A DNA stretch of 64,000 nt, from the NCBI RefSeq assembly GCF_024502345.1, contig NZ_JALDNN010000001.1; one strand, 5' to 3'. Below, in pieces: positions 20,462 through 37,318 of the stretch. This stretch comes from Escherichia coli. GTDB lineage: Bacteria > Pseudomonadota > Gammaproteobacteria > Enterobacterales > Enterobacteriaceae. Under the pieces are notes generated by a model, which saw nothing but the letters and a program-made list of their open reading frames with translations, did no database searches and was not told where the DNA came from. The first letter of the stretch is position 1. Each line of letters starts with the position of its first letter. The translations under genes and the position numbers were made by a program.

Positions 20462-21268
20462 TTAGCGGCGGAAGGTCGCCCAGACGGGGGCGTGATCGGA
20501 CGGTTTTTCCATGCTGCGGATTTCATAGTCGATGCCGGTTTCTACGCAACATTCTGCCAGCGGTTGGCTGGCGAGCAGCAGGTCGATGCGCAGACCACGG
20601 TTATCGTCAAAACCTTTTGAGCGGTAATCAAACCATGAGAAACGATCTGCTGTTTGCGGATTCGCATGGCGGAAGGTATCGACCAACCCCCAGCTCATCA
20701 GCCTGTCCATCCATTCGCGCTCTTCCGGCAGGAAAGAGCATTTACCGGTACGCAGCCAGCGCTTACGGTTTTCTTCGCCAATGCCAATATCCAGGTCGCC
20801 AGGACTGATATTCATATCGCCCATAATCAGCACCGGATTTTCACGCTTGAGTTCGGTTTCCAGGTAGTTTTGCAGATTCTGATAAAACTGCGCTTTTGCC
20901 GGGAATTTTATCGGATGGTCGCGGCTTTCACCCTGCGGGAAGTAACCGTTGATCACGGTGACATTGCCCAGCGGCGAGGGGATTTCCGCCATAATAATCC
21001 GCCGCTGCGCCTCTTCGTCGTCACCGGGAAAGCCGCGACGCACGGCAATCGGCGTCTCTTTGGTCAGCAGCGCCACGCCATAATGGCCTTTCTGCCCGTG
21101 ATAAAACACGTTGTAGCCGAGCTTCGCCACCTCTTCGAGCGGAAACATATCGTCATGAACTTTTGTCTCCTGCAGGCCAATCACATCCGGTTGGTGCTTT
21201 TCGACGATGGCTTTAAGCTGGTGGGGCCTGGCGCGCAGGCCGTTGATATTAAAAGAGACAAATTTCAT
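20462..21268 (-). CDS. xthA: exodeoxyribonuclease III
   Basis: 268-aa [37 protein letters not shown]... Confidence 0.95.
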
Positions 21269-21625
21269 AGTCGCTGCCATTTATTCAGATAAAGAGTGCG
21301 TGGATGGTAGCAGAATTTCGCTTTGCTTACCGCCTGTTGTTAAGTGATTTGATCGATGGTTGTTAATGATGTCAACGATGGCGCAAAAAATGCCCGCTTT
21401 TGGTGCGAGCTGCGTCAGAATGGCGCAGTAATTTCCAGTAAATTTCGTCAATGATCACAATTCCAGAATTATATTTTACTTCTGCATAACATTGCGTTTT
21501 TTATTCTTTTTATTCACTCACATCGCAAACGTATTCACTTAATATGCACTTTAAATGTATATGGTTTGGTTATAACTCCTTGATTTCCAGTTAGCCTCCG
21601 CGGTTTATGCACTTTCATCACTGGC

Positions 21626-21641
21626 TGGCACGAACCCTGCA
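21626..21641 (+). promoter_or_regulatory. sigma54 (-24/-12) promoter upstream of astC
   Basis: TGGCACgaaccCTGCA, i.e. GG-N10-GC, about 70 nt upstream of the astC ATG. The ast operon is known to be nitrogen-regulated. Confidence 0.7.
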
Positions 21642-21677
21642 ATCTACATTTACAGCGCAAACATTACTTATAGTTAA

Positions 21678-27741
<6,064 letters not shown>

Positions 27742-28070: not shown

Positions 28071-28556
28071 ATGCGTAAATTAACTGCACTGTTTGTTGCC
28101 TCTACCCTGGCTCTTGGCGCGGCTAACCTGGCCCATGCCGCAGACACCACTACCGCAGCACCGGCTGACGCGAAGCCGATGATGCACCACAAAGGCAAGT
28201 TCGGTCCGCATCAGGACATGATGTTCAAAGACCTGAACCTGACCGACGCGCAGAAACAGCAGATCCGCGAAATCATGAAAGGCCAGCGTGACCAGATGAA
28301 ACGTCCGCCGCTGGAAGAACGCCGCGCAATGCATGACATCATTGCCAGCGATACCTTCGATAAAGCAAAAGCTGAAGCGCAGATCGCAAAAATGGAAGAA
28401 CAGCGCAAAGCTAACATGCTGGCGCACATGGAAACCCAGAACAAAATTTACAACATCCTGACGCCGGAACAGAAAAAGCAATTTAATGCTAATTTTGAGA
28501 AGCGTCTGACAGAACGTCCAGCGGCAAAAGGTAAAATGCCTGCAACTGCTGAATAA
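28071..28556 (+). CDS. spy: periplasmic ATP-independent chaperone Spy
   Basis: 161-aa product with a signal peptide MRKLTALFVASTLALGAANLAHA and LTDAQKQQIREI motifs. Confidence 0.95.
   Translation: MRKLTALFVASTLALGAANLAHAADTTTAAPADAKPMMHHKGKFGPHQDMMFKDLNLTDAQKQQIREIMKGQRDQMKRPPLEERRAMHDIIASDTFDKAKAEAQIAKMEEQRKANMLAHMETQNKIYNILTPEQKKQFNANFEKRLTERPAAKGKMPATAE

Positions 28557-36547: not shown

Positions 36548-37318
<771 letters not shown>

Follow-up and report, generated by a model that had tools for sequence, protein, structure and literature searches.

The window analysed here, a stretch of 64,000 nucleotides of Escherichia coli DNA, carries the whole astCADBE operon on the plus strand (21714-27741), with its genes in the order annotated in E. 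coli. The five open reading frames, astC (21714-22934), astA (22931-23965), astD (23962-25440), astB (25437-26780) and astE (26773-27741), match their NCBIfam families above the curated cut-offs, astC scoring 848 bits against PRK12381 (cut-off 630), and the naming of the downstream gene and operon in the original prediction is thereby upheld. The divergent neighbour on the minus strand is xthA, encoding exodeoxyribonuclease III (20462-21268; NF008733). Its start at 21268 is fixed by the profile alignment, the K-12 annotation and the translated N-terminus, and xthA forms the upstream limit of an intergenic region of 445 bp at 21269-21713. The next gene after the ast operon is that of the periplasmic chaperone Spy (28071-28556, plus strand), an ordinary synteny that matches the E. 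coli K-12 map.

Within the xthA/astC intergenic region, the 16-mer TGGCACGAACCCTGCA is read directly at 21626-21641 on the astC strand (+) and is assigned as a sigma-54 -24/-12 core promoter element from its sequence, its identity with K-12 and its invariant core. The GG at 21627-21628 and the GC at 21639-21640 are separated by 12 bp from start to start, which is the canonical -24/-12 geometry, and the sole departure from TGGCAC-N5-TTGCA is a C for T at 21637, so that the near-consensus TGGCAC-N5-CTGCA originally called on this strand is found as described. Against the extended consensus YTGGCACGr-N3-TTGCW, the local sequence CTGGCACGA-ACC-CTGCA shows the same single departure, a C for the first T of TTGCA. 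The element lies on the strand of astC, between genes and at a plausible distance from its target, with 72 nt between the 3′ end of TGGCACGAACCCTGCA and the ATG at 21714, where about 70 nt had been estimated. By the convention that places the start 19 bp beyond the motif centre (PMC4591121), transcription in this strain is predicted to begin at 21652 (+), 62 nt before the astC ATG. The predicted 5′ leader would then span 21652-21713 on the plus strand, with a Shine-Dalgarno sequence AGAGG at 21704-21708, and has a predicted length of 61-66 nt in all 80 of the astC loci compared below. Two short sequences in this leader, TTAACA (21674-21679) and ATTTAC (21695-21700), show little or no variation in an alignment of 27 sequences. 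An Rfam scan of 21000-22000 detects no family above threshold, and a match to mgtC_leader in that interval, with 23 bits against the 48 required, was rejected as chance.

The comparison across enterobacteria used AstC as the query and one genome per species, and comprises 80 loci from about 25 genera, including Escherichia, Citrobacter, Salmonella, Enterobacter, Klebsiella, Raoultella, Lelliottia, Leclercia, Kosakonia, Buttiauxella, Cedecea, Trabulsiella and Yokenella, with AstC identities of 80-98%. TGGCA[C/T]G-N4-[C/G]TGCA is present 71-76 nt before the ATG in every one of these loci (80/80), and the GG/GC geometry is kept in all of them. Per-position counts were taken over the 63 distinct versions of the element that the 80 loci contain. 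Across these versions TGGCA, the following G and TGCA, and with them the GG and GC, are invariant, and each of spacer positions 8-11 is occupied by two to four different bases. An invariant core with a free spacer is the pattern expected of a two-part sigma-54 element and reflects purifying selection on the core from which the spacer is exempt. Position 21637 never carries the consensus T in the 80 loci (38 C and 25 G among the 63 distinct versions), and this persistent departure from TTGCA is in keeping with a promoter that is called weak in the literature. Conservation extends beyond the element over a block at 21621-21654 (+), CTGGC TGGCACG ... TGCAATCTACATTTACA, which is delimited by the per-position counts and a 27-sequence footprint and includes the predicted start at 21652. 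At the upstream end of this block, CTGGC (21621-21625) is invariant save for one A at its last base and gives rise to the repeat CTGGCTGGCA. Its conservation exceeds expectation, as the consensus requires just a pyrimidine at -27.

Within E. coli the region is nearly uniform. Aligned with its K-12 MG1655 counterpart, the intergenic region is 98% identical and shows no difference in the element or its flanks. Of 5426 complete E. coli genomes, 5424 contain the region, most of them at 95-99% identity, and at least 5227 carry a 46-nt core without any change. Base for base, the element of the window is the 17-mer CTGGCACGAACCCTGCA, which the sigma-54 ChIP-seq study of E. coli K-12 lists as site OS17 (Bonocora et al. 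2015, PMC4591121). In that map OS17 has a fold above threshold of 7 and a PSSM score of 11.29, in the range of confirmed promoters, and its predicted start lies 62 nt before K-12 astC at a promoter that EcoCyc lists as 'experimentally confirmed' (PMC4591121). ChIP-seq of NtrC in nitrogen-starved E. coli yields a 23-fold peak at astCADBE that is annotated with both 'direct binding' and 'gene expression analysis' (PMC4066584), and gSELEX peaks for the RpoN holoenzyme, for NtrC and for both combined are located in the astC/xthA spacer (PMC8743547). The astC promoter astCp also supports NtrC-dependent reporter expression in synthetic enhancers, where it is a weak sigma-54 promoter (10.1101/086108), and it is weak in a promoter survey (PMC7045595). 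Published summaries name RpoN, NtrC, ArgR, RpoS and CRP as the regulators of astCADBE (PMC3590144, PMC3037356). Nitrogen-limitation control of the ast operon, as originally proposed, is supported by the identity to OS17 and by the NtrC peak on the K-12 site, and the identical sequence suggests that sigma-54 and NtrC would occupy the window strain in the same way.

The published ChIP and gSELEX peaks at astC have low positional resolution. The NtrC ChIP-seq intervals at astC, glnK, glnA and glnH lie on the centres of the sigma-54 motifs or at most 10 bp from them, and not at the upstream enhancers, a placement for which either cross-linking through the loop or limited resolution could account. 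The mapped start of E. coli astC is known here via secondary sources, and a literature search for genome-wide start-site data for astC under nitrogen limitation returned none. Kiupakis and Reitzer reportedly mapped the astC start site in 2002 and footprinted both NtrC and ArgR.

Two sequences resembling the NtrC consensus TGCACC-N4-TGGTGCA are located farther upstream. The first, TGCCCGCTTTTGGTGCG at 21391-21407, is centred at -253 and has three mismatches in the 13 specified bases, and the second, TGCGTCAGAATGGCGCA at 21411-21427, is centred at -233 with three mismatches to the same consensus. Their centres are 20 bp apart, or about two helical turns. A minus-strand 'terminator' proposed by a consensus scan at 21410-21392 coincides with the palindromic first site and lies upstream of xthA, and it is therefore very unlikely to be a terminator. 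With up to four mismatches allowed in the comparison, an NtrC-like site is present at -253±1 in 70 of 79 loci (background positions, 1-3 loci) and at -233±1 in 53 of 79 (other positions, at most 3 loci), so that at the level of sequence the arrangement is that of a tandem upstream NtrC enhancer. The distances from these sites to the predicted start are held at 253 and 233 ±1 bp over about 25 genera, with much of the intervening sequence diverged. Measured from the xthA start codon, the predicted start is between 329 and 835 bp away, depending on the locus. Insertions and deletions appear to be accepted on the far side of the enhancer, but apparently not between enhancer and promoter. Because the enhancer-promoter distance is kept to within 1 bp while that on the xthA side varies, the data suggest that the enhancer-promoter length is itself under selection.

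The DNA between the NtrC-like enhancer and the promoter includes an AT-rich tract at 21429-21588, which has a GC content of 22-33% as compared with 50% for the window and contains ARG-box-like sequences. The original prediction was that an AT-rich region upstream of the element could hold both activator and ArgR sites; the low GC content and the ArgR-type boxes inside the tract agree with it, and the NtrC-like sites do not, as they lie upstream of the tract within an island of 60% GC. The 18-bp ARG box WNTGAATWWWWATTCANW has several matches with three to five mismatches, the best candidates being 21533-21550 (the best of all), 21522-21539 and 21481-21498, in a setting of AT-rich DNA where weak matches are common and with the canonical 21-bp pairing not clear. 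Among 79 loci, 73 have an ARG-box-like 18-mer beginning at -119 and 55 have one beginning at -130. The role of ArgR is taken from the literature, and the consensus matches suggest that these boxes may be the ones it uses. The tract also contains GATCACA (21453-21459), which lies within AAATTTCG-N5/6-GATCACAATT and is a candidate CRP-type half-site centred near -200. Of 79 loci, 77 have it between -198 and -200, and it is invariant in the 27-sequence alignment. A scan of the region with the full-palindrome CRP consensus detects no good site; the right half GATCACA alone is conserved and the left half is poor. With CRP listed in the literature and only the right half fitting the consensus, GATCACA may be the right half of a CRP site. 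The heptamer includes a GATC Dam site. A scan with the IHF consensus gives one exact match at 21573-21585 (-), of which the part TTGATTT (21579-21585) is conserved. A search of the literature for support for IHF at astC found none.

Two other explanations for the element have to be considered, of which the simpler is that the motif is a chance match without promoter function. The motif match alone is weak evidence, being within chance expectation for a 64-kb window: one-mismatch matches to the sigma-54 consensus number two against 2.26 expected, an exact TGGCAC-N5-YTGCA is observed once where 0.15 would be expected, and at least one exact match turns up in 13 of 100 shuffled windows. The second of the one-mismatch matches, TGGCACATGACTTCCA at 37161-37176 (-), lacks the -12 GC, lies antisense inside the open reading frame 36560-37318 and is evidently a product of chance, which lends the same explanation some credit at 21626-21641. 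The element upstream of astC nevertheless exceeds chance because of its position, its orientation, its conservation and its identity to an experimentally bound site. A fortuitous match would not account for a core that in all 80 loci, drawn from about 25 genera, stays unchanged and keeps its distance from the ATG while the adjacent spacer bases vary, nor for the occupancy of the identical K-12 sequence by sigma-54 in vivo. Conservation and published occupancy together exclude pure chance, and the probability left to it is negligible.

The other explanation holds that the conserved block is chiefly a stationary-phase promoter and start of astC used by RpoS (or sigma-70), to which the sigma-54-like motif is incidental or secondary. 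According to the literature, astC is RpoS-dependent and directly transcribed by RpoS, and TGCAATCTACATTTACA (21638-21654) is nearly invariant among the 63 versions from the -12 element to about +3, which is beyond the needs of sigma-54. This segment contains -10-like hexamers, TGCAAT and TACATT, the latter preceded by C. However, an invariant core with a free spacer fits the two-part sigma-54 element exactly, sigma-54 is bound in vivo in both E. coli and Salmonella, and the NtrC-like sites of the enhancer keep constant distances across the loci, all of which counts against a promoter that belongs chiefly to RpoS. RpoS ChIP-seq in rich medium has detected no binding upstream of astC, according to the literature, and a simple sigma-70-type scan of the intergenic spacer locates no RpoS or sigma-70 promoter on the plus strand. 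That RpoS is the chief user of the block is thus very improbable, if somewhat less so than a chance match. The RpoS and sigma-54 readings are not exclusive, as the literature has both sigma factors acting at astC, and promoters of the two kinds probably coexist there because conservation runs through TGCAATCTACATTTACA, farther than sigma-54 requires. Given the reported RpoS dependence, the block at 21621-21654 possibly overlaps the RpoS-dependent promoter. If this is true, one and the same stretch of DNA would be contested by the RpoS holoenzyme and the waiting sigma-54 closed complex. A more elaborate proposal, to be regarded as tentative and rather doubtful, is that ArgR, NtrC and sigma-54 form a stereospecific complex in which length is selected as well as sequence, together with an RpoS promoter overlapping at -12 to +3.

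The element is best explained as the sigma-54 (RpoN), NtrC-activated and ArgR-assisted promoter of astCADBE, which is astCp2 in E. coli K-12, and we assign this reading a probability of about 96%. On the side of the present analysis it draws on the sequence, the identity with K-12, the conservation and the fixed geometry across genera. Points that weigh against it are the chance-level match of the motif by itself, the C in place of the first T of TTGCA, the reported weakness of the promoter and the low resolution of the published peaks. In the mechanism that would follow, sigma-54 RNA polymerase would be seated on the GG at -24 and the GC at -12 and be held there as a closed complex. Upon nitrogen limitation, phosphorylated NtrC would assemble at the pair of sites some 253 and 233 bp upstream, meet the polymerase through a loop of the intervening DNA and use ATP for opening of the promoter, and transcription would then start near 21652, 62 nt before astC. 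Formation of this loop would be aided by arginine-bound ArgR sitting on ARG boxes within the AT-rich tract that separates the enhancer from the promoter. The published term 'superinduction' describes ArgR as accessory and not essential. The occupancy by sigma-54 and NtrC and the roles of ArgR, RpoS and CRP come from the literature on the identical K-12 sequence, and the individual boxes named above are the putative sites of ArgR and CRP. The astC sigma-54 promoter is already known and has been experimentally characterised in E. coli K-12 and Salmonella. The element marks the promoter from which enteric bacteria express their main arginine-catabolic operon under nitrogen limitation, and it carries little weight beyond correct annotation. 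The modest addition is that promoter, enhancer and spacing are conserved across the sampled Enterobacteriaceae, which supports the published architecture of looping plus ArgR.

The closest relative among known systems is astCp2 of E. coli K-12, whose -24/-12 17-mer is identical to that of the window, with flanks identical from at least -30 to +22, and which shares the divergent xthA and astCADBE order, the AT-rich tract and both NtrC-like sites. Relative to K-12, the 445-bp spacer has nine substitutions, none of them in the sigma-54 core; one lies between the NtrC-like sites and a few are in the ARG-box tract, and no functional difference is expected from them. The ast promoter of Salmonella Typhimurium was reportedly studied by Lu and Abdelal in 1999. 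According to the literature it is activated by ArgR. Its counterpart of the element is TGGCACGAATGCTGCAAT, which precedes STM1303 (astC); ChIP-chip shows sigma-54 bound to it, and it is assigned to NtrC (Samuels et al. 2013, PMC3844500). TGGCACGAATGCTGCAAT differs from the element of the window in two spacer bases (AATG as compared with AACC), at positions that vary freely from genus to genus. The glnHp2 promoter resembles astCp in being a weak sigma-54 promoter with a distant NtrC enhancer and an architectural protein bound in between. The helper at glnHp2 is the DNA-bending IHF, whereas that at astCp is ArgR with arginine, so that the architecture doubles as a sensor of the substrate, and the enhancer of astCp, at about 250 bp, is farther away than that of glnHp2. 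The archetypal NtrC/sigma-54 promoter, glnAp2, is a strong promoter whose high-affinity NtrC sites lie about 110-140 bp upstream. It has in common with astCp the GG-N10-GC core, the tandem upstream NtrC sites and activation by looping, and astCp differs from it in being reportedly weak and in having NtrC-like sites that are poorer matches, with three mismatches each.
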